NCBI GenBank assembly: GCA_028824015.1
Contig: JAPPFC010000055.1
Location: 109,083 to 173,082, forward strand
Direction of reading: 5' to 3'
DNA length: 64,000 nucleotides
Origin: a bacterium
GTDB taxonomy: Bacteria; Actinomycetota; Acidimicrobiia; Spongiisociales; ZC4RG35
Part shown: positions 9,074-44,909 of the stretch, piece after piece
Numbering within the stretch: the stretch's first letter is position 1
How the letters are laid out: the number at the start of each line of letters is the position of its first letter
The notes under the pieces: generated by a model
What the model saw: the letters and a program-made list of their open reading frames with translations, nothing else
Databases searched by the model: none
Told to the model about the DNA's origin: nothing
Program-made: the position numbers and the translations under genes

Positions 9074-11570
9074 GCGGGCCTATCTCCACCACCAGGTCCA
9101 CACCCAGGTCCGCCATCGTCCTTACCCCGGAGCCGAACGCCACCGGTTGACGGGCATGGCGCCTCCAGTACGTTCCGTCCAGCGCAGTACCGGCTTCCAC
9201 CGCTCCGCCCGTCAGGTTGCTGATCACGGTCACGGTGGGAGACCTGATCTCCACGCCGTCCATGAACTCCTCCAGCCTCGCCAGGGCCGGCTCAACCAAC
9301 GCGCTGTGAAATGCACGGGTCGTATTAAGCCTTCTGGCCCGGATGCCCGCCGATTCGAGGTCTGCCAGGAGGGTCTCAATCTCTTCGATCGGGCCACTGA
9401 CCACCTGGTGGGCGCCGTTGTCTGCAGATACGCTCAGCCCCACACCCGCCGAATCTGCGTTCTGCCTCTCCACCGCCTCCGCCACCCGCTCCGGGGACGC
9501 GAAGACCGCCGCCATGGCGCCCGGCTCCGTTGCCGACAACATCGCACCCCGCGCCTCGGCGAACCGCATCCCGTCTTCCAGGCTGAACACCCCCGCGGCC
9601 TGCGCGGCCGCCAACTCCCCGACGCTGTGCCCCAATACCACGCTGGGCCGTATTCCGACACTCGACCAGAGGGCGGTCAAGGCACACTCCAGCGCATAGA
9701 GGGCAGGCTGCTCCCAGGCCGTGTCGCCCAGTTCTCCCTCCGCTCCCTCCCGACCGAACATGACGTCCAGCAGGGATACGCCCCTCTCCTCCACGAACAC
9801 CTCATCGCAGCGATCGAGTACCGCTCTTGCCACCGGTTCGGTCTCGTAGAGGTCCCGTCCCATGCCCACCCACTGGCTTCCCTGCCCGGTGTAGACAAAC
9901 GCAACCTTGGTCGGCTTCGGCGCCTCGGTTTCCCTGCCCGTCTGCAATAGCCCACCCAACCCCTCCCGCAGCGAACCGATGTCCCCGAACACAACGCCTG
10001 CCCTGTGGGCGAAGTGACTCCGCCCGACGCCCGCCGTCCAAGACATGTCCGAGAGCACCGGGCCGCAGGCGGCGTCCGGGAAGTCAAACTCGGAGGCCCG
10101 ATCGTCGAGCCATGCCAGGTAACGCTCGGCAAGTTCTCTGAGAGCGCCCTCTGACTTCGCGGACAACGGCAGAAGACGGGTCCGGCGGGGCAGGGGGACC
10201 CCCGCAGTCCCGGAAGCGCCTGCCGTCGAATGCTCTCCGGTGGGATCATCCTCGGTGGAGGGATACTCCTCCACCACGATGTGGGCGTTGGTGCCGGATA
10301 TCCCGAAGGAGTTCACACCCGCCAATCGAGGGCGCCTGGTGCGGGACGGCCAGTCCATCATGGTCGAGGTCACATGAAGAGGCAGTCGATCCCAGTCGAT
10401 GCTCGGGTTGGGATCGTGGAAATGCAGATGCTTAGGGATCACCCCCTGCCTCACCACCAGGGCCGCCTTGATCAACCCTGCGATTCCCGCAGCCGATTCC
10501 AGATGTCCGATATTGGTCTTCACCGAACCGATGAGAAGCGGGCGGTCGGCCCGGCGGCCGGGACCGAAGACATTCCCCACGGCATTGATCTCGATGGGAT
10601 CGCCCACCGCGGTCCCGGTTCCGTGCGCCTCCAGATAGTCGATCTCCGACGGCCTCACTCCCGCTTCGGAGAGGGCGGTCTCCATCACCTGCTCGAGCGC
10701 CGGCGTGTTCGGGACGGTCAACCCGGTGCTGGCTCCACCGTGGTTCACCGCCGCGCCCCGGATGACGGCCCAGATCCGATCCCCGTCGGCCTCGGCCTCC
10801 CTCAACCGCTTCAGAACGACCACCCCGCACCCCTCACCCCGCACATATCCGTTGGCGGAGGCATCGAATGTCTTGCACTGCCCATCGGGGGAGAGCATCA
10901 TGGCGTCGGCGCGCAACTCATAGATCCTCGTATTCAAGATGGCCTGGACCCCGCCCACAATGGCCAGATCCGCCTTGCCCTGCTGGAGGTCCGCCACCGC
11001 GTCATGAACCGCCACCAGGGATGAGGCGCAGGCGGCGTCGATGGCTTTCGCAGGCCCGACCAGACCCAGGACGAACGAGACCCTTCCGCTGGCGCCGTTG
11101 AGGTTCGTGCCGCTCAGGGCGTAGAGGGAACCGGCCGCCTCGGCGGGTTTGTCCGATTCGACAACCAGCATCCGGTACTCGTCATTGCTGATACCCGTGT
11201 AGACGCCCGTCCGCGTGCCTCTCAGACCCTCCGGATCGATGCAGGCATCCTCCAGAGCCTGCCAGCCCACCTCCAGCATCATTCTCTGCTGTGGATCAAG
11301 GAGTTGTGCCTCCACCGGGGAAATGCGGAAGAAGGCGGCGTCGAACAGCTCGATCCCGTCCACGAATGCGCCGAACCGGCATGCCTCGTTCTGACCGGTG
11401 GGATTGTCGAACAGGTCGCGCAATCGTTCCCCACCGGAACCGGGAAGCCCCTCCGTCACGGTGTTCCTGCCCTCCATCAGCAGTTGCCAGAAGGCGTTCA
11501 GGTCGTTGGCGCCGGGAAACTTGCAAGCCATTCCGACAATGGCAATGGGCTCCGCGCCTCGTTCCCTCAT
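8883..11570 (-). CDS. supA: Type I PKS (SupA-like), N-terminal KS-AT part, truncated by frameshift in G8 run
   Basis: EPIAIVGMACKFPG, DAACASS, HGTGT, KTNIGHLE; AT GHSVG and RAFHS; AGGAG RBS before ATG 11570 (ORF extends to 11639). Confidence 0.9.
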   Translation of the reverse strand: MRERGAEPIAIVGMACKFPGANDLNAFWQLLMEGRNTVTEGLPGSGGERLRDLFDNPTGQNEACRFGAFVDGIELFDAAFFRISPVEAQLLDPQQRMMLEVGWQALEDACIDPEGLRGTRTGVYTGISNDEYRMLVVESDKPAEAAGSLYALSGTNLNGASGRVSFVLGLVGPAKAIDAACASSLVAVHDAVADLQQGKADLAIVGGVQAILNTRIYELRADAMMLSPDGQCKTFDASANGYVRGEGCGVVVLKRLREAEADGDRIWAVIRGAAVNHGGASTGLTVPNTPALEQVMETALSEAGVRPSEIDYLEAHGTGTAVGDPIEINAVGNVFGPGRRADRPLLIGSVKTNIGHLESAAGIAGLIKAALVVRQGVIPKHLHFHDPNPSIDWDRLPLHVTSTMMDWPSRTRRPRLAGVNSFGISGTNAHIVVEEYPSTEDDPTGEHSTAGASGTAGVPLPRRTRLLPLSAKSEGALRELAERYLAWLDDRASEFDFPDAACGPVLSDMSWTAGVGRSHFAHRAGVVFGDIGSLREGLGGLLQTGRETEAPKPTKVAFVYTGQGSQWVGMGRDLYETEPVARAVLDRCDEVFVEERGVSLLDVMFGREGAEGELGDTAWEQPALYALECALTALWSSVGIRPSVVLGHSVGELAAAQAAGVFSLEDGMRFAEARGAMLSATEPGAMAAVFASPERVAEAVERQNADSAGVGLSVSADNGAHQVVSGPIEEIETLLADLESAGIRARRLNTTRAFHSALVEPALARLEEFMDGVEIRSPTVTVISNLTGGAVEAGTALDGTYWRRHARQPVAFGSGVRTMADLGVDLVVEIGPHAVLGPMATLAWPEAGPGGDVAAVPVVLSSMRRPPRDGASAEPEAGFLDAVAEAYEGGAGGLL

Positions 11571-11705
11571 CGCTTCTCCTCCCCCGGCCTCCCCATGGAT
11601 CTGTCCCGGAACCTCGGAGTCGGGGAATGCACTCATCACATACGCATTTTAGATATTTGGCTGTCCGGCCACAGGAGACGGATTCGCTCCCATCTCGTTG
11701 TTTGG

Positions 11706-30846: not shown

Positions 30847-32520
30847 TCAGAAGTGGTTGGTGACCGCCCCGTTCTCCGCGCCGCCCACCAGGTTGGCGTA
30901 CTTGGCGAGGGCGCCGGAGGGGTAGCGGACCGGGGCCGGCTCCCACCCCGCCCTTCTCTGTTCCAGCACATCGTCGGCCACCAGGAGGTCCAGCCGGCGG
31001 GCCGCCACATCCACTTTGATGCGGTCCCCCTCCTCCACCAGGCCGATCGGCCCTCCCACCTCGGACTCGGGGGCGACGTGGCCGATGCACAGGCCGGTGG
31101 TGCCGCCGGAGAAGCGCCCGTCGGTTATCAGCAGGACGTCCGATCCCAGTCCCGCTCCCTTGATGGCGGCGGTGATGGCAAGCATCTCCCGCATGCCCGG
31201 GCCGCCGCGCGGGCCCTCGGTCCGGATCACCAACACCTCCCCGGGATGAATGTTCCCCGAGAAGAGCGCCGCCAGGGCGCCCTGTTCCCCGTCGAAGACC
31301 CGGGCCGGACCCTCGAATATCTCGAGGGCTACCCCGGCCACTTTGACCACGGCTCCGTTCGGCGCCAGGGAACCTCGCAGGATGGCGATGCCGCCCTCGG
31401 CGGCGATAGGATCGGAGGCTGGACGCAGCACGTCCTGGTCGGTTGGGGCCCTTACATCCCTGAGGTTTTCGGCCATGGTCCTTCCGGTGGCCGTCAGGCA
31501 GTCGCCGTGCAGCAACCCTTCTTCCCAGAGGACCTTCAGCACCACGGGGACCCCTCCGAGATGGTCGACGTCCACCATGTGATACCTGCCGAACGGCTTC
31601 AGGTCGCCGATGTGGGGAGTCCGCCGGCTGATGCGGTCGAAGTCCTCCAGTTCCAACTCCACTCCGGCCTCATGCGCCAGGGCCATGAGATGAAGCACCG
31701 CATTGGTGGAACCGCCCAACGCCATCACGGTGGTGATGGCGTTCTCGAAGGCCGGCCGGGTCATGATCTGGCGGGGCCGTATTCCCTCTCTGAGGAGATT
31801 CATCACCGCTTCGCCGCTCTGGCGCGCATACACCCCCAAGCGGGTGTCGACCGCGGGGACCGAAGCGGACCCGGGGAGGGACATCCCGATCGCTTCCCCA
31901 ACCGAAGCCATGGTGTTGGCTGTGAACATCCCCGCGCAGGAACCGGCGCCCGGACAGGCGTTGCGTTCGATTTCGTCAAGGTCCTCGGCGCTGATACGCC
32001 CCTGAGACTCGGCTCCGATCCCCTCGAAAACGTCGACGATGGAGATGTCCCGGCCCCGATAGCGGCCGGGTAGGCTCGATCCACCATACAGAAACACCGC
32101 CGGCAGGTTGGAGCGGGCCGCCGCCATGAGCATGCCCGGCAGGGACTTATCGCATCCGGCGATGGTCACCAGGGCGTCGAATCGCTCGGCGTGCACCATC
32201 AATTCCACCGAGTCGGCGATCACTTCCCGGGAGACGAGCGAGGCTCGCATCCCCTCGTGGCCCATCGAGATGCCGTCCGAGACCGCAATCGTGGCGAATG
32301 AAAGCCCGACGCCGCCCCCAACCCGTACCCCTTCCTTGGCCCGCTCGGCGAGTACCGGGCCGGTTATGTTGCAGGGCGTGACCTCGTTCCCCGCCGACAC
32401 CACGCCTACCTGTGGCTTGGTGAAGTCCTCATCGGAGAGGCCGACCGCCCGGAGCATGGCCCGCGCCCCGGCGCGGGCGGGACCCTCTGTTACGTCCTGG
32501 GAGTGAATCTTGAGCGACAT
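30847..32520 (-). CDS. ilvD: Dihydroxy-acid dehydratase
   Basis: [47 protein letters not shown]; TATTAT 6 nt before ATG 32520. Confidence 0.96.
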
Positions 32521-32891
32521 ATCCCGATAATAAGCCGTGGCCCATAATTCAACCCAGCTTCCGACGGTTGCCATAAGGAGGCGCTGGAGAATAGCCACCG
32601 CCATCTGCGGCCACTCGCATTGCAGATTGTTCTTGTCACACCTACCTGCGAAAATGATGATTACGTGAAGGTACCCAACTGTGTCAGTTCCGCAACCATT
32701 GAGGCATCGTCCTTGCCTATGCCGTCGGACCACCCTTGGGAGGGGTTGATCTTCATTGTTGGCGGTCCCCCTACGACACCTGGCAGTACCGCAAGGGCAA
32801 GAAACCCCGCTGTCACAATCACAGAATTCTCTGTCTTTCCTGTAGTGCATGAAGTCCCCGTCCGCTTTTGCTGTTGGGAAGGCTCCAGGTT

Positions 32892-35800
32892 GTGACAAGG
32901 GATGGTCCTAGCCAAGGGCCTTGGCGTAGCCCTAGATCTCTCGAAGGTGAACTCAGACCTTTGTTGCGGGATGTTGGCCTCATAGCAGAACTAGATCTTT
33001 CGCAGTCGGGCAATGTCTACGAAAGTGCCCGAAGGGCCTTTGGGAGGTTGATATCCCGGGGGATGATCGACTCTCTTGCCAGGGTCTGCCCGGCGGCGAC
33101 CGCGATCTTCTTGGTAGCTGAAGGGGTCCACCGCTACAAGGGAGGAACATTCTGGCCGAACCTTTCCGTCAAGGGCATCAGCACCAACCAGCAGAATGCT
33201 GTTGGGGAGCAGTTCCTAAGGTCGCTCATGCGATTGCGACTCAACACCTTTGAGGATGTTGTGCACCGCGAGAACGCGTTGCCATTCTTGACTCCGATTC
33301 TGCTTCATGGAGGAATTCCCGCCGACTCGGCGAGTGCCGTCTGGGCGTGCCTGATTGAGGAGATGCGATGGGGTCAGGACGATGCTGGCCGCATCATGGC
33401 TCGGTGGCGGCGCTACCCCTACTTTCTTCAGGGGGTGGGCAAACCGGCCGAGCGGTTCATTCTTCACGGTGGCGACTTCGCAGTAGACCTCATTCAGCGG
33501 ATGATCCAATTGGCGGACGACGTAGCCGCCCTGGGCAAGACTGAGGCCCTTCAAATAGGCGCAGCCGCACTTGCTGCTGACGCCGCTTTACCCCGATACT
33601 TGGCTGAGAGGCTCCTTGAGGGATCAAGTGAACCACACCTCTTGGGGCCCCGTCCCCCCAGACCGCGGGTGGTTCTTGATCCATATAGTGGGGAGGGTCC
33701 CCGCTTGTTGCTACCACCGTCGCTAGCTATGTCAGGCAATTGGCGAGTCTTCTGGAACGGGCGGCAAGAGGCTTACCCAACATCCTTTTACGACGAGCGC
33801 CAAGTTCCTCTCGACCCAGCAGCAGTCTGGGAAGTCACCTTTCTCAACAACTACGCGGAACGGACAACCACCCTTGGTCCCATGGAAGACGTACCTGTTT
33901 ACGTTTTCGACCACACCGATGAACTCTCGCAAAACCAGACCACCTTCCGAGGCGAATCCGTTCTTATCCTCGCGTCCAGGAGCGTGTCCTTCTTCACAAA
34001 CAGGGACCTAAGCGCAACGGTGCCAGAGGTAGAGGAACTGCCCGGGTTGACCGGTACCTGGTCCGGATGGCAGGCACGCCGCCTCAACATCACTGGCCTG
34101 ACAGAGATAGTGATTTCCGGCGTGTCTCGCACTGGAGAAACCCTTCGAGAGACGGTGGGTGTGGTGGGGTCCACCGGCAGACCCCGCCTTCTCGACAACC
34201 ATCTCCCGGGTGTGAGTGATGCCAATGGAGGTTTGGTTTTCAGCCAGCCCCCGCGGGTGAGGGTCGACTTAGGAACGACGTCCCGACAAGCATGGCGGAT
34301 CCGCTTCCGCGCATCGAGGTCCTCACCGGTAGTCACCCTGGCAGACCTAGAAGCCGACTCATCGGACCCCTGCGTCTTTGATCTCTCTCCCTTAGTCGAC
34401 TTTCAGGGAGTTGCCAGTGGATACATTGAGGTCCTCGGACCCCTTGGATCCGACCTGCGCACTCCGGTCACGATCGTGCCGGGTCTCAAGATCAGCATGC
34501 CGGATCACATCGTTGGCCCGGATGAGTCTCTACCCATTCGTATATCAGCAGATGTTCCTCTAGATGGCCACACATTGACACAGATTGAGATCGCATTTCC
34601 CCCGGGCGAGTACACATCCCGTATATCGGCAGGCGTGGAGAATGTTGAGCTTCTGGTGTCGGTACCACGCCTGGTCTGGGCATTTCGGCATCGGGAAGGC
34701 CTACTGCCCTCCTACGGGACAAGAGCTAGGAGCATCACCCTTGATGAGTTTGTAAACGGAAACGTCGAGGCTGTTCTCGTCCGGGTCGGAAGGCCTTCGG
34801 CGGTGCGTCTTGAACTCCATGCGGCAGATCTAATCCAGACGTCGCAGGAGAAGGCCAGTGGAGTTGAGGGGCGCTGGGCTTTCCCTCTTGCGGAGTTCAA
34901 GACATCGGCAGCTCACGCCCAAGCAGCTCGGCTTTATCTGAGGGTCCTGTGCCAAGACGTCAAAGCCGACCTAGCCGTGATAGAGGCAGCCCACGAGGTC
35001 TCCGATATCAGCATTCGAAGCGGCGTCAACGTCGGTGGCGACGCCACTATCCAGGTCCGTTGGAGGGAGAACATTGCTTACAAAGACCGGGAAGTCCGGT
35101 TGTGGTCAGACCATCGCCCTTGGGAACCCCCAACCACGATTCCGGTGCCTGATGCCAACCGTGGGTACTGCGAGTTCGAGAAGCTTATTCCACCTGGACC
35201 TTACCTGCTGGAGGTCGGAATCAAAGACCCGTGGACCTCTCCAACGAGGCCATTGGCGCCAGTCCCATACGCCACCCAGGTAACTATTGGAACGACAGAC
35301 GACCTCCGGCGTCACTTAACGACTCTGAATACCTGTGACCGTTTATCGGCACTCGAACTGGAGCTTGCAGGGCGAGGCCCTATCAGAGACCTTGACGAGG
35401 GACAGGTGGAGAGCATCCTCCAAGAACTCCAAGTGGCTTTGTTTAGTCGCCATCGCTTGGCCGGACCAAGCTGTGCCTCTGATCAGGTCTTCGGGAGACT
35501 AAGTGAACTGGCCCTCTACGAAACTAGCCACCTGGCAGAAATGATCTCCAGGATTGAAGACATCTCGGCTGCCGATTTAGCTCGCCTTCTTGTCACTCTG
35601 GTTCAGGGCATCATTGATTGTGCTCCTCAAGGAATCGCAGAGCCTGTTCTAGAACGGCTCTGGAGGATGAGTCCGGTAGCTGGTGCGGCGTTTGACACTT
35701 ATCGAAGTGGGGATGAGCGATGTGCAGGTCGGTGGCTGTCTTTTACCGGCTGGAATCCGACGGTCCGTTCCAGTAGCGAAACCAACATTGATGACTCAAG

Positions 35801-36248
35801 ACAACTCCCATTTGGAGGAGGGCCGATCCAGACCCCCTTCCACACCTACAATCCTGGGCAACTCCGGGACCACGCTTCAGAATTGAGGCCTAGCGAAGTC
35901 CGAGTGCTGAAATGGAGTGGGCACTTCCAAGCAACGCTGGACTTCCTGAGCCGCACATACGATAACCGGGCGCAGGTCGAGCGATGGCAGGTCCAATACG
36001 GGGGCCTAACCACGGACACCCGCTGTTTCCAGCCTTTGCACGTTTCCTACCTACGGAATCTAAATCTCAAGAGCCGCATGCCGGGTTGGTGCCGGTTTCC
36101 CCAAGATCTGATGGCATGCGCGTTTCACCTTTTGATCTTTGGCGGCAAGAGCGAGCGCGCAACTAGAGGTCTGTGGGACGCTTTGGAGTTCGCGCCCGAA
36201 CTCGCCAACCGGAGTCTGCTCGTAGCCATCATCCTTCACCTATCCTGA
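32892..36248 (+). CDS. Large uncharacterised protein, DruH-like partner of YprA/DUF1998 helicase (putative defence)
   Basis: ~1120-aa ORF (ORF from 32868; GTG 32892 preceded by GGAAGG) with YKGGTFW and ILLHGGIP motifs and a beta-rich middle; 10 bp upstream of helicase. Confidence 0.6.
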
Positions 36249-36258
36249 CCGCGAGACA

Positions 36259-39200
36259 GTGGACACCTACTTCCTCAATCCCCTAACTGCCTCAACTCGG
36301 ATCAGCGATTCCTATAAGCGATACCTGCGATCACGCCACGCTCCACAAGATCCACAGTTGCGAAGGGACTTCTATCACGCACTCGACAACGGTTTCCCGC
36401 TTTCTCGGGGACCCCTACTTCAGGCCTCCGCTCCTTTCGAGACCGTTAGCACAATCAAAGAGCTGATTGACGAAGGGATCCTCAACGAAGGTTTAAGCCA
36501 ATTGCCGTCATCAGCTTTTCCGATCGACAGGCCTCTTTACCATCACCAGAATCAGGCGATACGCAAACTTGCAGCAGGTCGCAACCTGATCATCGCCACC
36601 GGCACGGGATCCGGCAAGACGGAGTGCTTCTTGTTTCCGATCCTGCACCACCTTCTTGACGAGCGAGATGCGGGCACCATTCACACGGCAGGTGTTCGCT
36701 CGCTCCTGCTCTATCCAATGAATGCCTTGGCGAATGATCAAATGAAACGTCTGCGGCAAATCCTGCAGGCTTTTCCCGACATCACATTCGGCCGGTTCAT
36801 CGGCGACACCCGTGATTCGTACCGGAAAGCCCTAGATATCTATCAAGACCGATTCGACTGCGACCCGATGCCAAATGAGCTGATCAGTCGTGACCAGATG
36901 AGAGAGAGACCGCCGCACATTCTGCTCACCAACTATGCCATGCTCGAGTACCTGCTTCTAAGGCCGGCTGACACCAGGCTTTTCGATGGCGCGACCGGTC
37001 AACACTGGCGGTTCATAGTGCTTGACGAGGTTCATGTCTACAACGGCGCCCAAGGAGCGGAGATCGCAATGCTGCTCCGGCGCCTTCGCGATCGTGTGAA
37101 CGGGAGCAAGCGGGGGCTCATCCAGTACGTTGGCACGTCGGCAACCCTGGGCAGTGAATACGAATACCCGGCTCTCGCTGAATATGGGCAGGATCTCTTC
37201 GATGAGCGCCTTGAGTATCAGCCCGGCGCGGCGATGAGACAGGACATCATCGGCCCTGTCAAGAGGCCGCTCGTGCAAGGGCAAGCCATGTGGACAGCCA
37301 ACCCAGAAACCTTCGAGGACATGTCCCGTCAACTTGCCGCAGGTGACACCGTCTCTGCGTCGCTCCTATCGCGGATAGCCTCGATGGGAGCCCCTCAACC
37401 GGCAGCGGGACAAGACCCGCTTGCCTATCTTGGTGAGGCTCTAACCACGGAGCGCCATGTGGTACAACTCCAGGGTTTGCTCGAAACAAGGTCCATCGAC
37501 CTCACCGAAGCCGCGGATAACCTGTTTGGTGAGGGATCGGAAGCGGCGCTGATCCACCTTCTGGAAGCGTCCTCCCGCATCGAAACCCCCCGTGCTGAAG
37601 GTCCCGTCATCCCTTCTCGCTACCACTTCCTCTTGCGCGCCCTCGAAGGCGCATTCATCTGCCAGTCTCCAGAACATCCATCCGACCGACCACGACTTCG
37701 CCTCAATCGCCACAGAACCTGTCCCGACTGCTCGGAGGGAGGAGTCACGTCGCAAATGTTCGAATCCGGTGTCTGCGCCAAGTGCGGAGCAGCGTACCTA
37801 GTTGGCATACGCCGACCCCGGGGCAGAAGCACCTTCCTGGAATCGGCTAGGCCCTTTACAACCAACCTCACCTATTTGCTGTTGGAAGAGGAAGTCTTAA
37901 CAGACGATGAAGACGAAGCGGCTTCAGTCCACGACGACCTCATAGCGGCCAACGTCGACAAGAGGGTGCTCTGCGCTGCATGCGGTTCGCTGACTGAGGG
38001 TCCTGAGTCTTCTTGCGATTGCGGCGTCTATCAAGAGGTTCGAGTAACCGTTGCTCATCCGTCAAAACCCGGAGAGCCACTGCGGAGATGCCTCGCCTGC
38101 TCAGGACGCAGCAACGCTCCGATAGTTCTCCGCTTCCTAACGGGCCAAGACGCCCCCGTCTCCGTGATAGCCACCGCTCTGTACCAATCGATTCCACCCA
38201 GCTCAGAGTCCGGCAAAAAGGTCAAGATCGGTGAAGGGCGCAAACTCCTTTCCTTCTCAGACTCTCGGCAGGACGCCGCTTTCTTCGCGCCCTACCTCGA
38301 CCGCACCTATTCCCGAGCCATAGAGCGTCGCCTCATTTGGCAAGTAGCCCAGCGATTACACGAATTGTCCCCCCGCTTCGAGGACTTAGTCACTCCAATC
38401 CGAAGAGATGCCGAATCAGCGCTTGTTCTCGATGAGGATGATGGGCCCTTACGGAACACCACTCGAGTCCGGACCTGGCTGATGAGAGAAGTCTTGGCAG
38501 TTGACCGTCGGCAGAGCCTCGACGGCGTCGGATTAGCTGAGATCACCTTCGCACTGCCAAGGGGCCTTAGCGAGGTACCGGCACTAACCGAACTCGGATT
38601 CACACGTGATGAAACATTCGACCTCGCGCGAGTGCTCTTCGACACACTCCGTATGCAGGGTGCAGTTCACCTACCGGAAGGCGTTGATATCACCGATCCG
38701 ATCTTCGCTCCCCGAAACGTCGTCACGACAGTTCGTCTAGAGAAGAGGGGCCCCAGAATCCTCTCCTGGTTGCCGGGCGCTGGCTTGAACCGACGGCTTG
38801 ACTACCTCCGCAAGGTGTTGACACGCCGAGGCATCGAGAGAGATGCACGGGAACTTCTGGAGCAGATGTGGACTCGATGGATAGCCAAACCGAACGGGCC
38901 TTGGAGCAAGGTCCTAACTCGGGTCGACAGCAAACGGCACGGGATAACCCTTGCCATGAACCCGGAGTGGGTGACTATGCGTCTACCCACGGACGAAGCA
39001 CCGGCATTCCGCTGTGGCTTGTGCCGACAGATCTGGTGGCGGTCAATCAGCAACGTGTGTCCGACCTATACATGTGAAGGCGTTCTCGAACCATTCACTA
39101 CACCCACGGCCCAAAGAGATGAGCACTACCGACATCTGTACACCACACTCGATCCAATTGGGTTACGCGTCGAAGAGCACACCGGTCAGCTTGATGCCAC

Positions 39201-41079
39201 CTACGCAGGCCGGCTTCAGCAGCAATTCCTAGACGGAGACATCAACGCCCTGAGTTGTTCCACGACTTTCGAGTTGGGAGTTGACGTGGGAGAGGTCCAG
39301 GCAGTCCTCATGCGAAATGTCCCGCCATCGCCAGCAAACTACGTCCAACGTTCCGGCCGAGCTGGCAGACGGACGGGAACTCCGGCGCTGGCCGTTACCT
39401 TTGCACAGAGACGCAGTCACGACCTCCACTATTTTGATCGCCCTAACGCGTTAGTGGATGGCCATGTCACAACACCAATCGTTTCGCTCCGCAACCCCCA
39501 GATCGTGAGACGTCACATCCACGCTTTGGCGTTAGCAGCATTCGAACGTGCACATGTTAACTCCGGTGGTGAATGGCACAGGACCGTGGCTTCCTTTTTC
39601 ACCAGCACTACCGATGACCAGTTAGCGCCCGTCGATCAGTTTGCCGCCTGGCTGCGGTCGCATCCCGAAGAGGTCGGTGAGGCGGTAGGTCGAATCACTC
39701 CGCGGGACCTGTCCGATGAACTCGGAATCATGCATTGGTCCTGGGTCGAAGCCCTCACGGAGGAGGGCGAGATCGAGAACTTCGGCTGGCTCGAAAGAGC
39801 CAAAAAGGAAGTACAGTCGGACTTGGATCAAATCAATGCCGAACTGGACAAAGTCTCCGAGCGGATAGCTGACCTTCGCCGACAAAACCTGAACAGCCAG
39901 GCATCCAAACAGGCTGGCCTGCAAACTGCACTGTTCCGGATGAAAGCAACGCTCGAGCAGCGGCAACTAATCCAGTTTCTCGCACAGCGGGTGATCATCC
40001 CCAAATACGGATTCCCAGTTGATGTTGTATCCCTCGACATATGGAAACCGGGCGACGTCACCGCGCCACGGGTCGACCTATCCCGCGATCTCCGCCTCGG
40101 CATCACCGACTATGCGCCTGGCTCCCAGGTAGTAGCGGATAAGAGATTGTGGGAGCCCGTCGGGCTCCGCATCCCTGTAGGTAAAGCACTACTTGATCAC
40201 GTTTGGGCCATCTGTAAAACCTGCGAAGCGTTTCGAGCCCACAGAGGCAAGGAGACGGGCAGATGCAACGTGTGTTCCAGTCCGGACATCAGCCAGATGA
40301 GACCCTTCGTAATACCAATGTTCGGCTTCATCGGCGAACCTAGCAGTCAGAAGCCTGGGGAGACTCGTCCCCCTAAGGCTGGGTACTCCCATTTCTATTT
40401 CACCGATTACGCCACCGCCCCGCCCCACTACAAACCCATCCGAGTAGGGCAGAAGGAGGTATTGATCCGGTCCAGCCGCCAGGGCCAGATCACTGTGATC
40501 AACAAAGGGCCGGGTGGTAGCGGATTCCAGGTCTGCGGATCATGTGGACACACCGAGCCCGTTCCGAGCACCTCCACCAGAAGGAAGAAGAAACCGGTAC
40601 CCCACTCTCGACCGGGTCGCAGCACTAAATGCTCCTCGCTGCTAGGTAACCGACACCTCGGACATCAGTATCTGACCGATGTTGTAGAAGTCATCCTCCC
40701 GGTGTCTATGCAATGGACCGATGCCCTGAGCACGCTATATGCACTGCTGGCCGCCACCCACTCAATCGGCATCATAAGAAGTGATGTGGACGGCACCCTC
40801 CGCCCTTCCGGGCCCGACCAAACGCTATCGATCATTCTCTTTGACGCGGTACCGGGTGGAGCGGGACACACCAAAAGGATCGTCGACCGGTTTCCAGAAC
40901 TACTCAATGCGGCCTACGACGTGGTGGCGAACTGTGAGTGTGGCAGGGACTCAAGTTGCTACGGCTGTCTCCGAACATATTCCAACACCCTGTACCACGA
41001 TGAACTGGTCAGGGGTCGTGCACTATCGGCCATCGGTCAAGTTCTGACGCTGGACCGCCCCGGTCTTATCGGCGAGTAA
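36259..41079 (+). CDS. SF2 DEAD/DEAH helicase with multiple CxxC inserts and C-terminal DUF1998 (YprA/DruE-like)
   Basis: LYHHQ, TGTGSGKT, YPMNALANDQ, DEVH, SAT, FSDSRQDAA, TTFELGVDVG, QRSGRAGR, FDAVPGGAG..CEC..SCYGCL. Confidence 0.9.
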   Translation: MDTYFLNPLTASTRISDSYKRYLRSRHAPQDPQLRRDFYHALDNGFPLSRGPLLQASAPFETVSTIKELIDEGILNEGLSQLPSSAFPIDRPLYHHQNQAIRKLAAGRNLIIATGTGSGKTECFLFPILHHLLDERDAGTIHTAGVRSLLLYPMNALANDQMKRLRQILQAFPDITFGRFIGDTRDSYRKALDIYQDRFDCDPMPNELISRDQMRERPPHILLTNYAMLEYLLLRPADTRLFDGATGQHWRFIVLDEVHVYNGAQGAEIAMLLRRLRDRVNGSKRGLIQYVGTSATLGSEYEYPALAEYGQDLFDERLEYQPGAAMRQDIIGPVKRPLVQGQAMWTANPETFEDMSRQLAAGDTVSASLLSRIASMGAPQPAAGQDPLAYLGEALTTERHVVQLQGLLETRSIDLTEAADNLFGEGSEAALIHLLEASSRIETPRAEGPVIPSRYHFLLRALEGAFICQSPEHPSDRPRLRLNRHRTCPDCSEGGVTSQMFESGVCAKCGAAYLVGIRRPRGRSTFLESARPFTTNLTYLLLEEEVLTDDEDEAASVHDDLIAANVDKRVLCAACGSLTEGPESSCDCGVYQEVRVTVAHPSKPGEPLRRCLACSGRSNAPIVLRFLTGQDAPVSVIATALYQSIPPSSESGKKVKIGEGRKLLSFSDSRQDAAFFAPYLDRTYSRAIERRLIWQVAQRLHELSPRFEDLVTPIRRDAESALVLDEDDGPLRNTTRVRTWLMREVLAVDRRQSLDGVGLAEITFALPRGLSEVPALTELGFTRDETFDLARVLFDTLRMQGAVHLPEGVDITDPIFAPRNVVTTVRLEKRGPRILSWLPGAGLNRRLDYLRKVLTRRGIERDARELLEQMWTRWIAKPNGPWSKVLTRVDSKRHGITLAMNPEWVTMRLPTDEAPAFRCGLCRQIWWRSISNVCPTYTCEGVLEPFTTPTAQRDEHYRHLYTTLDPIGLRVEEHTGQLDATYAGRLQQQFLDGDINALSCSTTFELGVDVGEVQAVLMRNVPPSPANYVQRSGRAGRRTGTPALAVTFAQRRSHDLHYFDRPNALVDGHVTTPIVSLRNPQIVRRHIHALALAAFERAHVNSGGEWHRTVASFFTSTTDDQLAPVDQFAAWLRSHPEEVGEAVGRITPRDLSDELGIMHWSWVEALTEEGEIENFGWLERAKKEVQSDLDQINAELDKVSERIADLRRQNLNSQASKQAGLQTALFRMKATLEQRQLIQFLAQRVIIPKYGFPVDVVSLDIWKPGDVTAPRVDLSRDLRLGITDYAPGSQVVADKRLWEPVGLRIPVGKALLDHVWAICKTCEAFRAHRGKETGRCNVCSSPDISQMRPFVIPMFGFIGEPSSQKPGETRPPKAGYSHFYFTDYATAPPHYKPIRVGQKEVLIRSSRQGQITVINKGPGGSGFQVCGSCGHTEPVPSTSTRRKKKPVPHSRPGRSTKCSSLLGNRHLGHQYLTDVVEVILPVSMQWTDALSTLYALLAATHSIGIIRSDVDGTLRPSGPDQTLSIILFDAVPGGAGHTKRIVDRFPELLNAAYDVVANCECGRDSSCYGCLRTYSNTLYHDELVRGRALSAIGQVLTLDRPGLIGE

Positions 41080-41160
41080 GGTGTGCACCCACTTTCGTGG
41101 AGTCGGGATTGTTGAATGAGTTTGCCCTTCCAGACATACTTCCATATGATGGGCGGACCC

Positions 41161-41766
41161 TCACCTCAAGACCGAGTACCCACTGACACTGGCTGACCAC
41201 CGCGCCACGGTGGAGAGCAGTATGTCGTACTGGTCCATCAATACCAGGACCCCCATAGCCGCCAAGACCGTCTTGGCCGCCAATGCCACCCACCGCCCGT
41301 CCATCCACCGGCGAATGGCAGGAACATAGGACAGCAAGGCCATCACCGCCACCAGGGGAATCATCACCCCCACCAGGTACACGGCCAATAACAGGAGCGC
41401 CACGCCCGGCTCATCCCGCGCCTGGGTGAGTACCGTTCCCAGTTCCTCTCCCACACATGGAAACCAAGTGGCGCCTGCGAACGTCCCAAGGAGAGCCGAT
41501 CCGGCCAGGCCGGCGATCCGGCGGTTCACCATCAACGCGAGCGCCAGACCCCCGATGACGAGCAGGACGGTCGCCGCCCGACCGGCCAGGAGATTGGAGA
41601 TACCCGCTGCCCTGATCCAGGCCGAGAGGATGGTGAACCCGGCAAACACGCCCAGCGCCCCCATGCGGTCCTTTCTTCTCAGCACCACCAGCGCCAGGCC
41701 CACCAGCAGGACGGAGTAGGAACAAGCTACAACGCTCGAGCGGATCCCCTCCGCGAAGAGGCTCAC
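41161..41766 (-). CDS. CcdA/DsbD-type disulfide-transfer membrane protein
   Basis: Hydrophobic; two TM cysteines (VACS, WFPCVG); GTGA-coupled to redoxin. Confidence 0.65.
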   Translation of the reverse strand: MSLFAEGIRSSVVACSYSVLLVGLALVVLRRKDRMGALGVFAGFTILSAWIRAAGISNLLAGRAATVLLVIGGLALALMVNRRIAGLAGSALLGTFAGATWFPCVGEELGTVLTQARDEPGVALLLLAVYLVGVMIPLVAVMALLSYVPAIRRWMDGRWVALAAKTVLAAMGVLVLMDQYDILLSTVARWSASVSGYSVLR

Positions 41767-42506
41767 ATCTCCTCCGAGAGCAGGAAAGCCACGGTCTGCT
41801 CCAACTCGCGGTACTTGCCCTCCCCGATGTGGTCGAAGCGGACCCGGCCTTCCCGGTCCAGCACGTAGGTACGGGGCCAATAGGCCGTGCCGCCCGCCTG
41901 CCACTCCCAGAAGGTCCGGCGTCTGGTGTCCAGCACCACCGGCCAGGTGACCCCCAGGTCAATCAATGCTTTCTTGATGTTGTCCACGTCTTCTTCGTAC
42001 TTGAACTCCGGGGAATGGATGCCGACGATCTCCAAACCCTGATCGCGGTACTTGGCGTACATCTCCTGGGTGTAGGGGATGCGGTTCTTGCAGTTGTAGC
42101 AGCCGAAGGTCCAGAACTCCACCACGACCACCTTGCCGCGCAACTCCTCGAGTGTCTCGACCTGCGACTGCAGCCAGCCATCGATGTCCACCAGCCGGGG
42201 GTGGACCTCTCCCAGCACCTCCGGGGTTGGGAAAGTGGTGGTGGTTGTTGTAGGAGCGGCAGTGGTGGTAGTGGGGACAGTGGTAGCCGGGACGGTCGTC
42301 GCGGCGGTTACCGCAGCAGTGTCCTGCTCTTCGGCGACCGGGGCGACGTCCTGTTCCTCGTCCGCAGCCGTGGTTGACGCCGGCGAGGCGGCGGTCGTCG
42401 CCGGCGCCGCCTCCTGAGGGTCTTCACCGACCAGCCAGGTCCACCCCAGGGCGATCACCCCCGCGGCGAGGACGGCCAGCAGAACAAGGCGCGAATCGAT
42501 CCTCAT
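41763..42506 (-). CDS. Membrane-anchored redoxin (DipZ thioredoxin-like domain)
   Basis: N-term TM, Thr-rich linker, LRGKVVVVEFWTFGCYNC, GIHSPEF, YWP. Confidence 0.85.
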   Translation of the reverse strand: MRIDSRLVLLAVLAAGVIALGWTWLVGEDPQEAAPATTAASPASTTAADEEQDVAPVAEEQDTAAVTAATTVPATTVPTTTTAAPTTTTTTFPTPEVLGEVHPRLVDIDGWLQSQVETLEELRGKVVVVEFWTFGCYNCKNRIPYTQEMYAKYRDQGLEIVGIHSPEFKYEEDVDNIKKALIDLGVTWPVVLDTRRRTFWEWQAGGTAYWPRTYVLDREGRVRFDHIGEGKYRELEQTVAFLLSEEM

Positions 42507-42561
42507 CACCGCAGAAACTAGCGAGACCTGAGCGCCAACTCTCCTCCGAAACAACCCCTGT

Positions 42562-43677
42562 TCACGGGTCCAGGCCTGCCAGGGCCATTTCCTCCCTTAC
42601 CTCGGGGGATCTTTCCCGAGAAGCAGCGTGGCGGATGAACATCTCCGCTCGGCGCGTGGACAGCCTCACTCCCAAGCGATGGACCGCCCACACCGCATGC
42701 AGTCGAAGCATCCAGTCGGGACTGCCCAGATAGCCGGCGACAAGATCGAGGTGTTCTGCCGTCCCGGTGTTGCCCAGGGCCACCAGCGCGTTGCGGCGCA
42801 GCACGCGGGGTCGGCGGGAGGGGAGATAGAAGTGCCCGAACCGGTTGATCAGATCCCGATCCGGGGTCCGCAGGAGCTCCACCAGGTCCACCGATCCCCG
42901 GTGGGAAGCAGCTCGATCCAGCAGACGAGAGCCGGGCGGGCAGGCCGTCAGACACTCGTCACACCCGTACAGGCGGTCCTCCAGAAAGGGGCGCAGATCG
43001 CGGGGTATGACTCCCGGACTCTGAGCCAGCGCCGCCAGGCACAGCCGGGCATCCAGTACGCCGGGCGCCACCAGGGCCCCGGTCGGGCAGGCGGGAAGGC
43101 ATGCCGTGCAACTCCCGCAGTTCCGCTCCATCAGCCCCGAGACCGGCAATGGGGCGTCGGTGACTACCGATCCGATCAGAAACCAGGGTCCCACTCCCGG
43201 CGCCAGGACCATGGTGCTCTTGCCCCACCACCCCACGCCGGCTCTCACCGCCGCCGCGCGGTCCACCAGGCGCGAATCGTCAACCAGCACCTCGGAGAGG
43301 AACCCGGCCTCCCCCAGTTCGAGGGCCAGTCTCTCCAGGCCCGACCGGAGGGGCTGGTAGGCGTCGGTGACCGCGAAACGGGCTACCCGCCCCCGACCGG
43401 GCAGGACCGCGCCCGGATCGCCTGCATCGGGAAGGTAGGACCGGATCCCCACCACCAGTCGTTCTGCCCAGGGGAAAGAACGGCGGATGTCGGTGGAGAC
43501 GTCCGGGTCGGTGAAGGTGAAACCCAGCCGCGCCGACATCCCCGCGGCTTTGCGGGAACGGATGGTGATCCGGGTCGAGGAGAAGGGGTCGGCGGTGCAA
43601 ACCCCGACCCGGTCCAGTCCTGCCTCGGCGGCCAGGGCGATCAGACGGGCCGTCAGACCGGCGAGTTCGCCATCCAC
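42562..43677 (-). CDS. queG: Epoxyqueuosine reductase
   Basis: AGVGWWGK, CGSCTACLPACPTGA, LDARLC, GCDECLTACP, RRNALVALGN. Confidence 0.9.
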   Translation of the reverse strand: MDGELAGLTARLIALAAEAGLDRVGVCTADPFSSTRITIRSRKAAGMSARLGFTFTDPDVSTDIRRSFPWAERLVVGIRSYLPDAGDPGAVLPGRGRVARFAVTDAYQPLRSGLERLALELGEAGFLSEVLVDDSRLVDRAAAVRAGVGWWGKSTMVLAPGVGPWFLIGSVVTDAPLPVSGLMERNCGSCTACLPACPTGALVAPGVLDARLCLAALAQSPGVIPRDLRPFLEDRLYGCDECLTACPPGSRLLDRAASHRGSVDLVELLRTPDRDLINRFGHFYLPSRRPRVLRRNALVALGNTGTAEHLDLVAGYLGSPDWMLRLHAVWAVHRLGVRLSTRRAEMFIRHAASRERSPEVREEMALAGLDP

Positions 43678-44909
43678 TCCGCCAACGCCTCCGAAGCCAG
43701 AATGAGCGCACCGTACGTCCGGCACCGTTCCGCCAGACCGTTGTCGCTGGTTATCACCGCCACCCGCTCCCCGGCCCGACCGGCGGCTTCCCTGGCGATG
43801 GCGTCATCGGCGTCCTCCACATAGAAACCGGTGAGGCGCCGGCTTTTGAATCGGTTGTCCCAGTCGGGGTCCAGCCCGCTCACATGCCGGGAGTCCAGGT
43901 AGAAGAGCACCTGGTGGCGGCCGACCGAGTACTCGGCCAGATTGTCCAGTTTGTTGGTGATGAACCCGATCGTCCGCAAGTCCGGTTTGCCGGGGATGAG
44001 CCGGTGAGAGTTCCAGTAGTGGGCGGCGTTCCACCCGTCCACCACCAGGATGAGCCGGGGAGCCTCGTAATAGATCCACTGCAACGCCCCGGGAGACTTG
44101 GGATCCAATCCCGGTGGAAGCTCAAGCAGCGGGGGGCGGAACTCGTCCTGGTCTGACAGGGAATCCGCGCCCACCTCCCAGTAGCTCACCATCTGATCCA
44201 GCATCCGAGCCGCTTCCAGGGGATCCCGGCTGAATCCGACCTCCGCTCCGGAGCCGACGCTCGACCGAGCAGGGATTTGCTTCGTCTTCAAGCTGTATCG
44301 CTTACGCAGTTCCTCGTATCGACGGTCGGCCTCGGTCAGTTCATCCCAGGCTGCATTGGTCTCCCTCTCCCATCTGGCTGACTTTCTGCTCTCTTCTGAG
44401 ACCTGTCTCTCCAGTTGGCAGTTTCGCTCTCTGGCGCGGCTCAGGTCCCTTCTCAACTGATTGGTGCGCTGTCGAGTGCTCTTCTCAGCCAACCGCCGCT
44501 GTTCAGCCAACTGGTTCTTGAGCGATCTCAACTCCGACTGAGCCTCCTCAAGGCTCGCCCTGAGCCCGTCGGCGTCCATTCGGGCCTCCCGCCGCTCGAT
44601 CTCGGCCAGATGGCCTCGGGCACGGAACTCCCACCCCTCCGACCTCTCCAGAAACAGGACCGAGGCGGCGGTGCGGGGGTCGGTGCTGTTCTCTCTTGCA
44701 GCGTCCCAACCACTGAGGGTGGTTTCGCGAAAGTCCGGATCTCTGTCGAGTTCCCGGTAAATGGTCTGGGCCTCGATGGGCGTAAGCCTCCGCGACGAAG
44801 AACTGCGGGTCCTGCGGAGAGTGTGAGGAACCTCGTCAGGTCGCATCGCTCTTATAACCCTTCGAGCCTCCTCCAAAGCCAACCGGAAGTCTTCAGGCCG
44901 AAATTTCAT
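43653..44909 (-). CDS. Coiled-coil protein with C-terminal NYN (YacP-like) RNase domain
   Basis: LVVDGWN, DADDAI, VITSD acidic motifs; central heptad-rich region. Confidence 0.72.
   Translation of the reverse strand: MKFRPEDFRLALEEARRVIRAMRPDEVPHTLRRTRSSSSRRLTPIEAQTIYRELDRDPDFRETTLSGWDAARENSTDPRTAASVLFLERSEGWEFRARGHLAEIERREARMDADGLRASLEEAQSELRSLKNQLAEQRRLAEKSTRQRTNQLRRDLSRARERNCQLERQVSEESRKSARWERETNAAWDELTEADRRYEELRKRYSLKTKQIPARSSVGSGAEVGFSRDPLEAARMLDQMVSYWEVGADSLSDQDEFRPPLLELPPGLDPKSPGALQWIYYEAPRLILVVDGWNAAHYWNSHRLIPGKPDLRTIGFITNKLDNLAEYSVGRHQVLFYLDSRHVSGLDPDWDNRFKSRRLTGFYVEDADDAIAREAAGRAGERVAVITSDNGLAERCRTYGALILASEALAEWMANSPV

Follow-up and report, generated by a model that had tools for sequence, protein, structure and literature searches.

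An 8,613-bp island (positions 32543-41155) in a 64,000-nucleotide stretch of contig JAPPFC010000055.1 (the window), taken from an Acidimicrobiia genome assembly of 2.9 Mb that is 95 % complete, most probably represents a compact ('III-B' branch) Druantia type III system of two genes, gained by horizontal transfer, in which a gene for a DruH-type partner protein is followed by a gene for the helicase DruE. Druantia III is now split into III-A, the form of Escherichia coli and Pseudomonas with a PLD-bearing DruE, and the compact III-B. An anti-phage function of the cassette is suggested by analogy with the DruH-DruE pair of Mycobacterium smegmatis, which reduces plating more than 10^4-fold for several mycobacteriophages, requires both genes and the interaction of their products, blocks phage DNA circularisation and replication, and is activated by a minor tail protein (PMC13316683).

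A compact DruE-type helicase

The second gene of the pair (36259-41079, + strand, as are all coordinates within the island) encodes a helicase of 1606 amino acids (aa) that PADLOC models place with DruE (DruE1 at 2.4e-187, DruE3 at 1.4e-180, 624 bits; seven DruE models below 1e-110), with other PADLOC models, namely DpdJ (101 bits), DrmA (55 bits) and also BrxH, far behind. Its best solved relative is a DruE as well (PDB 9tu7_Y, a chain of 2,108 residues, 8e-89), and the NCBIfam models that respond do so under their cut-offs (TIGR03817, 148.5 bits with a cut-off of 874; NF041067 DpdJ, 98.7 with 800; DrmA-L, 15.3 with 999). Pfam recognizes DEAD, Helicase_C and MZB/DUF1998 domains in a protein with 29 cysteines, in agreement with a sequence-only reading of this DNA that had described a Cys-rich DUF1998 helicase akin to DruE.

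All helicase and zinc motifs are intact. The RecA1 lobe (36541-37158; Pfam DEAD 2.1e-23, residues 95-300) carries the Walker A motif GSGKT with K120, DEVH at 256-259 and SAT at 294-296; the RecA2 lobe (39151-39372; Pfam Helicase_C 9.3e-11, residues 965-1038) contains QRSGRAGRR (1030-1038); and the zinc-binding MZB/DUF1998 domain (40750-40971; PF09369 3.2e-13, residues 1498-1571) holds C1559, C1561, C1567 and C1570. A zinc-ribbon-like insertion of cysteine pairs occupies residues 468-614 (37660-38100). Cysteines at 506/509, 572/575, 586/588 and 611/614 of this insertion, and at 919/922, 934/939, 1319/1322, 1336/1339, 1426/1429 and 1561/1567/1570 elsewhere, are invariant in all 19 aligned DruE relatives.

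The helicase is colinear with the DruE of an E. coli plasmid (2,104 aa), residues 36-707 aligning with 32-684 and 970-1595 with 1071-1715 with 26-27 % of about 1,300 residues identical, and it stops 11 residues past its counterpart of E. coli DruE 1715, where the E. coli protein continues for a tail of 389 further residues. The PLD nuclease lies in the DruE tail, the nuclease mutant of the Pseudomonas protein (PaDruE) being D1740A (preprint 10.64898/2026.05.13.724313). Since PLDs escape Pfam even in E. coli DruE, their absence here is read from length and colinearity. We conclude that, by sequence, the helicase is unambiguously a DruE, in a compact form that ends before the C-terminal PLD nuclease region.

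Two relatives of the helicase deserve mention in their own right. At a Planctomycetota locus (L040:13654-19722) the DruE open reading frame (ORF) has 2,023 aa, some 400 more than at other loci, and may carry a nuclease extension. The best plasmid match, on Clostridium butyricum plasmid NZ_CP013238.1 (L054:4783-12668), is a helicase of 1,559 aa with 28 % identity over 99 % of the length; it is preceded, with a 4-bp overlap, by a hypothetical protein of 1,069 aa that neither PADLOC nor the partner-family profile matches and that may represent another partner lineage.

Evidence for a remote DruH homologue as the partner

The longest ORF upstream of the helicase gene begins at TTG 32868 (1126 aa), but a GTG at 32892 is the likelier start of the partner gene (32892-36248, 1118 aa), because GGGAAGG stands 10 nt upstream of it and because of homologue N-termini (a homologue starts MTRGD, and partner residues 9-13 read VTRDG). 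Residue numbers below follow the TTG start.

The relation to DruH emerged when families were compared with families. Using hhalign, we aligned the partner family (alignment A3, 52 sequences) with the canonical DruH/YjiT family (alignment A2, 30 sequences) at a probability of 96.5 % and an E-value of 7.1e-10 over 687 columns (partner 33-782, DruH 32-829); the match covers the N-terminal domain and the array of immunoglobulin (Ig)-like domains, and pairs the partner's GGTFW with GGxWxW of DruH and its HGGIP with EGGLP. Only this family-against-family comparison worked, as the partner family found nothing when set against the single sequences of E. coli DruH or the C. butyricum plasmid partner. 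A further line comes from the ESM Atlas, where the best cluster (0.93) has PF27201 YjiT_N in 21 % of its members and 22 of the 30 matches fall within that set.

Structure prediction is consistent with the same relation. Cryo-electron microscopy of DruH revealed an N-terminal helical domain, six Ig-like domains and another helical domain at the C terminus (preprint 10.64898/2026.05.13.724313), and the AlphaFold2 model of the partner (mean pLDDT 84) has the same three-part build: a helical domain at residues 22-251 (32931-33620), a beta-rich array of about six Ig/Fn3-like domains at 267-807 (33666-35288) and a second helical domain modelled at 810-1125, which we take to the end of the protein (810-1126; 35295-36245). 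In the N-terminal domain W96 and R211 are present in 52 of 52 family members, H147 of the motif H147-G-G-I-P151 in 51 and D207 in 49. Foldseek and VIA-align with the whole model returned, among the matches listed, generic Ig/Fn3 arrays only and no entry for DruH. Together, the profile alignment and the model support the view that the partner is a remote DruH homologue; of the two options that the sequence-only reading had offered, a remote DruH homologue or a new family, the first is thus favoured and the second is given up.

The family is large. A word-indexed search returned 37 relatives, and the same 37 when rerun with alignment A3, while an exhaustive profile search found 1,646 clusters (at 50 % identity) with E<=0.001, of which 801 had E<=1e-30. 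Firm matches to profile A3 among 401 sampled Actinomycetota genomes were confined to the class Acidimicrobiia; NF038336, the NCBIfam model of the YjiT family (YjiT_fam), was found in 0 of these 401 genomes but also in 0 of 14 control genomes, so that its blank is uninformative. A tblastn search of the partner against 72,556 plasmids gave no match.

Conserved pairing with DruE and the setting of related loci

A DruE-like gene lies directly downstream of the partner, on the same strand, at 42 of 53 related loci. Of the 11 remaining loci, nine stand on DNA that breaks off too soon, L044 is a fragment that lacks a long ORF, and at L030 a sigma-tailed partner is followed by a MASE1 gene. The gap between partner and DruE genes is -32 to +37 bp in 18 of the 19 pairs measured, and the layout of type III, a single accessory gene placed upstream, co-oriented and tight, is the one we see here.

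Relatives of the pair often stand beside other defence genes. We scanned the flanks of 16 loci (locus L050 was left out) with PADLOC at 1e-15 and obtained matches for 17 of 122 ORFs, as compared to 1 of 38 in the window's housekeeping flanks, a crude control. Strong full-length matches adjoin the pair at five of the 16 loci and comprise HmaA (L013, L045), type I restriction-modification (L027), AbiLi with PDC-S01 (L019) and PDC-S01 (L001). At two of these, both from Acidimicrobiia, an adjoining gene encodes an ATPase with AAA_14 and DUF4143 domains (L001:8541-9815, PDC-S01 at 6e-143; L019:6428-7702, at 1.3e-78).

A side observation concerns the C-terminal end of the partner. Chloroflexota members keep the N-terminal domain and Ig array (matching the partner over about residues 21-808), and their C-terminal part is a copy of a sigma-70 factor, with Pfam Sigma70 regions 1.2, 2, 3 and 4 at L030:5518-9762 and regions 1.2, 2 and 3 at L027:9986-15133; by tblastn, such a tail is present at five of the 53 loci (L030, L027, L032, L036 and L037). 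A limited literature search found no description of sigma-70-tailed Druantia partners, from which it does not follow that the observation is new to the literature. At an Acidimicrobiales locus a sigma-70-like gene, here a separate one, stands just downstream of DruE (L018:18784-19377), possibly by coincidence.

Assignment to the III-B branch

Bell et al. 2025 (PMC12458937) set apart as distinct a 'Type III-like' branch that mostly lacks the nuclease. They take III-B to combine DruE with a single kind of DruH, and so does the Wahl/Beisel preprint. The Bell et al. supplement assigns the label 'Druantia Type III-B-like' to the helicase on JAPOQZ010000258.1 (L002), whose DruE and partner are 72 % and 59 % identical to the proteins of the window, and also to those on SIJK02000016.1 (L027), JACQDB010000090.1 (L029) and FQUW01000013.1 (L042). 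At least four of the nine contig accessions searched in that table carry the label, as matched by contig and not by locus tag, and MSMEG_1254 of M. smegmatis mc2 155 is listed there as III-B-like too. The helicase of the window itself does not occur in the portion of that table that was searched. Membership in the III-B-like clade is read here from the published helicase labels of relatives, in a table that classifies the helicase and not the partner.

The sequence-only reading had proposed a candidate divergent Druantia-like system. Druantia it appears to be; most of the novelty is removed by the strong DruE match, and a compact nuclease-less branch with a DruH-type partner already bears the names III-B and 'III-B-like'. 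After the papers of 2025-2026 the findings will not surprise a specialist.

A stand-alone accessory insertion

To delimit the island we used blastn against three same-genus genomes (G013, G010 and G016), in which homology is lost at 32542 and regained at 41156. These clean breakpoints define the insert as 32543-41155 and show that it replaces 32-38 bp of intergenic DNA of the congeners; the limits proposed from the letters alone, 32521-41160, agree with them. Other features read from the letters were likewise borne out by measurement: two large co-oriented ORFs (32868-36248 and 36259-41079) with a spacer of 10 bp, flanked on both sides by genes of the - strand; an AT-richer island, with a GC content of 0.574 as compared to 0.644 in the remaining window, dropping from about 0.66 to 0.55-0.59 across the gene pair; and more A/T-ending codons, the GC content at third codon positions being 0.612 for the partner gene and 0.629 for the helicase gene as compared to a mean of 0.744 (sd 0.075) for the window's 38 non-island ORFs. 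No tRNA is present in the window, no direct or inverted repeats of at least 9 bp are shared by the two island ends, and no mobility or partner genes accompanying the pair were seen in the window.

The pair is patchily distributed among relatives, whose records are Acidimicrobiia by name and many of which come from sponges. All 17 same-genus genomes have ilvD (90-98 % identity) and a queG-like gene, and these lie 10,045 bp apart here as compared to 1.39-1.54 kb in 13 of the 16 others, which leaves no room there for the pair; the spacing is 2.08 kb in G007 and 3.8 kb in G009, and the two genes are on different contigs in G014. In none of the 15 comparable congeners was the insertion found at the ilvD site. 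The partner protein was found in two of 41 related genomes, this one included, and in one of the 16 other same-genus genomes (G009), where it is 61 % identical and located on a contig (C1) separate from that of ilvD; in the matching record (L001) DruE is encoded directly downstream. The claim of a stand-alone module thus stood up to the presence/absence comparison at ilvD that had been proposed as a check, the pair not being part of the syntenic core in same-genus genomes.

Metagenomic contigs show the same arrangement. A contig assembled from sponge-metagenome run X1, possibly the source sample, spans 32478-41761 (9,285 bases) with 0 differences, and one from a sponge-associated run of another study (X3) covers 32513-41309 (8,797 bases) with 49 differences, or 99.4 % identity, bridging the right junction and reaching only 30 letters to the left of the left one. 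The island is no assembly artefact. The flanks at 31000-32500 and 41560-42340 each occur in run X1 as two contig variants, one identical at a depth of about 31 and one 6-9 % different at about 54-59, and the island is a single contig at a depth of 32; therefore a related strain co-occurs in the sample, none of whose contigs was observed on the island. We conclude that the pair is a stand-alone, horizontally acquired accessory insertion and not part of the core genome.

The ilvD/queG interval is also enlarged in G009 (C2:13500-23000) and G007 (C1:1092000-1100000) relative to about 1.45 kb in 13 congeners, and this intergenic spot may repeatedly take up DNA.

Alternative readings

Several results weigh against a Druantia III system with a DruH-type partner. 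The partner sequence matches nothing in Pfam, NCBIfam (at 0.1), PADLOC (E<=10) or PDB (phmmer), although in the same Pfam scan E. coli DruH went unmatched as well, PF27201 and PF27205 being outside the models scanned. Partner-family profiles A1 and A3 match neither the solved DruH (PDB 9tud) nor other PDB sequences, the partner does not match NF038336, and 0 of 40 further family members match PADLOC; the control, E. coli DruH ('STY4851/ECs_5259 family'), matches 11 PADLOC DruH3 models, NF038336 and 9tud. A precomputed Pfam domain is found in 0 of 37 partner relatives as compared to both PF27201 and PF27205 in 41 of 43 canonical DruH relatives. The C-terminal domain alone has no detectable homology to the DruH family (hhalign probability 0.2 %). 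A glutamate invariant in canonical DruH (E75, 30 of 30) aligns with partner E85, a position at which only 24 of 52 family members have Glu, so that a shared nuclease site is doubtful; E75 of the E. coli protein is the likely equivalent of E64 in Pseudomonas DruH (PaDruH), where R22, K28 and E64 of the N-terminal domain are needed for defence. Beyond the partner, the window's 38 non-island ORFs yielded a single PADLOC match at 1e-15, an ABC ATPase, and otherwise no defence neighbours; the M. smegmatis and window partners are likened by published description and not by sequence; and the published mechanisms of DruH conflict with one another.

Some of these results would also fit a Druantia-derived but functionally distinct system, in which a DruH-like N-terminal domain and Ig array are joined to a different C-terminal output or bait and a nuclease-less DruE acts without DNA degradation, through a replication block, ATP drain or recruitment of host nucleases. 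We consider this unlikely. The partner's C-terminal domain, well folded when modelled alone (pLDDT 86), resembles neither canonical DruH nor any solved fold searched, and the residues that form part of a single-stranded DNA (ssDNA)/ATP pocket in E. coli DruH (R1031, H1062, R1064 and K1067) and the contact of Pseudomonas DruH with the DruE stalk (preprint 10.64898/2026.05.13.724313) both belong to that domain. The PLD region is absent from DruE, the canonical glutamate is kept in fewer than half of the family, and a sigma-70 copy replaces the C-terminal part at the five loci described above, whence the partner's end is exchangeable; moreover, for the M. smegmatis system an abortive, non-canonical route that depletes ATP has been put forward by its authors (PMC13316683). 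Against it, the homology to DruH spans 687 columns within the same three-part build, III-B is treated in the sources cited above as DruE with one kind of DruH, and it is weak evidence of replacement that hhalign fails on a helical domain that evolves fast. A complex prediction with DruE 960-1606 and partner 805-1126 scored 0.01 against a mark of 0.32 and speaks neither for nor against binding.

A related and quite speculative idea, to which we give little credence, is that the conserved N-terminal domain and Ig array are joined to an exchangeable C-terminal bait or adaptor domain, which is a full sigma-70 copy in Chloroflexota and is predicted here to be a well-folded helical domain without a detectable relative. 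Such a protein would guard host machinery, for instance by detecting phage proteins that seize the sigma factor, and would answer via a nuclease-less helicase instead of DNA cleavage by DruE.

An inactive relic, once acquired but since fallen out of expression or function, is a very improbable reading of the cassette. The cassette has no defence neighbours, a promoter scan found one sigma-70-like site (32633-32661) in a site count not above that of shuffled sequences, and the related fragment at L044 has no long ORF. However, both ORFs are intact over 8.2 kb with every helicase and zinc motif kept, and the island recurs at 99.4 % identity in the sponge-associated run of another study.

That the pair serves DNA repair, as a housekeeping or stress helicase pair like MrfA/YprA or SftH, and is not immune, is the least credible option: the helicase shares its superfamily 2 (SF2) core and MZB domain with MrfA (PDB 6znp_A, 1.7e-23), and a repair-type SftH could substitute for DruE in the M. 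smegmatis cassette (PMC13316683), but the pair was found in only two of 41 related genomes and lies on a lower-GC insertion that other same-genus genomes were not seen to have at this site, its DruE score dwarfs the sub-threshold one of TIGR03817, and its relatives often adjoin restriction-modification, Abi and Hma genes.

Leader, flanking genes and other features of the window

A non-coding leader (32543-32891), the presumed promoter region, separates the partner gene from the start of ilvD. A scan for terminator-like sites gave numbers not above those of shuffled sequences. The genes on either side are housekeeping genes of the - strand and outside the system. The left neighbour is ilvD (30847-32520; Pfam ILVD_EDD_N and _C); on the right (41161-43725) are a 247-aa ORF (41161-41904), a redoxin gene (41763-42554; Pfam) and a queG-like gene (42562-43725; Pfam Fer4_16 and HEAT_2). 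The name 'ccdA', which the sequence-only reading had given to the 247-aa ORF, is unverified, this ORF having no Pfam match at E<=1e-5.

Further away, the window contains two large type I polyketide synthase genes (1313-11639, - strand), with products of 918 aa (KS-AT) and 2,587 aa (DH, methyltransferase, ER, KR, ACP, KS and AT).

Proposed mechanism

For III-A, DruE is held in three preprints alike to be a helicase with 3'-to-5' polarity whose substrate is DNA that is forked or contains ssDNA. The preprints part ways over DruH, which is described in the first as a 3'-5' exonuclease with its C-terminal domain on the DruE stalk (preprint 10.64898/2026.05.13.724313), in the second as an ATP-inhibited ssDNA binder, and in the third as a protein that senses late structural proteins of the phage and has a dimer-dependent nuclease.

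Transferring the steps of this published work on relatives to the pair in the window, we propose that DruE would act as an ATP-driven 3'-to-5' SF2 helicase that loads on phage DNA in replication or recombination, at its forks or ssDNA regions. The partner may sense late phage structural proteins by its Ig-like array, and may bind or trim ssDNA and license DruE; the two together would stop the circularisation and replication of phage DNA. As DruE here is without the PLD nuclease, the killing step would not be cleavage by DruE itself, and could instead come from the unwinding, from a nuclease activity of the partner's N-terminal domain or from host nucleases.

Implications and comparison with known systems

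The partner family is large, and yet PADLOC 2.0, NCBIfam and precomputed Pfam do not see it, so that automatic defence finders miss or half-call such systems; alignment A3 could seed a detection model. Current models of Druantia III rest on a PLD nuclease borne by DruE. Because the compact branch is without such a nuclease, and yet one of its members protects M. smegmatis, cleavage by DruE is not the general mechanism of Druantia III. The cassette further shows that defence genes have recently flowed into uncultured, sponge-associated Acidimicrobiia, the site being variable in two congeners as well.

Of the known systems built around a related helicase, DISARM (DrmA/DrmB), Dpd (DpdJ), ARMADA and MrfA/YprA have the SF2 core and MZB/DUF1998 domain in common with the helicase of the window but score far under DruE. 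Membership in DISARM or Dpd was rejected, as the scores of their models are under cut-off and their companion genes were not found; neither a methyltransferase, DrmC, a BrxHII-type gene, DrmB nor a dpd cluster is present in or beside the island.

Druantia III-A of E. coli and P. aeruginosa (DruH = YjiT/STY4851, PDB 9tud; DruE, PDB 9tu7) is closer. It has the same gene order and a colinear DruE, and its DruH shares with the partner the N-terminal domain and Ig array, by profile-profile alignment, as well as the three-part architecture. It differs in that III-A DruE has two C-terminal PLD-like nuclease domains, which the DruE described here is without, in that the C-terminal domain of III-A DruH cannot be aligned to that of the partner, and in that the E. 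coli pair sits with Zorya II and ARMADA II, whereas the pair in the window is not so embedded.

Closest are the compact systems. Druantia III-B-like (representative GIH50614.1) likewise consists of two genes, partner first and DruE second, with a compact DruE free of PLD domains. The M. smegmatis DruH-DruE pair, for which alone protection, toxicity of DruH on its own and triggering by a minor tail protein have been demonstrated (PMC13316683), comes from the same phylum and has the same gene order and tight spacing. Its proteins are similar in size to those of the window, with 1132 aa for MSMEG_1253 and 1667 aa for MSMEG_1254 (PMC13316683) as compared to 1118 and 1606 aa, and the Walker A lysine of its helicase is residue 119, as compared to residue 120 here.

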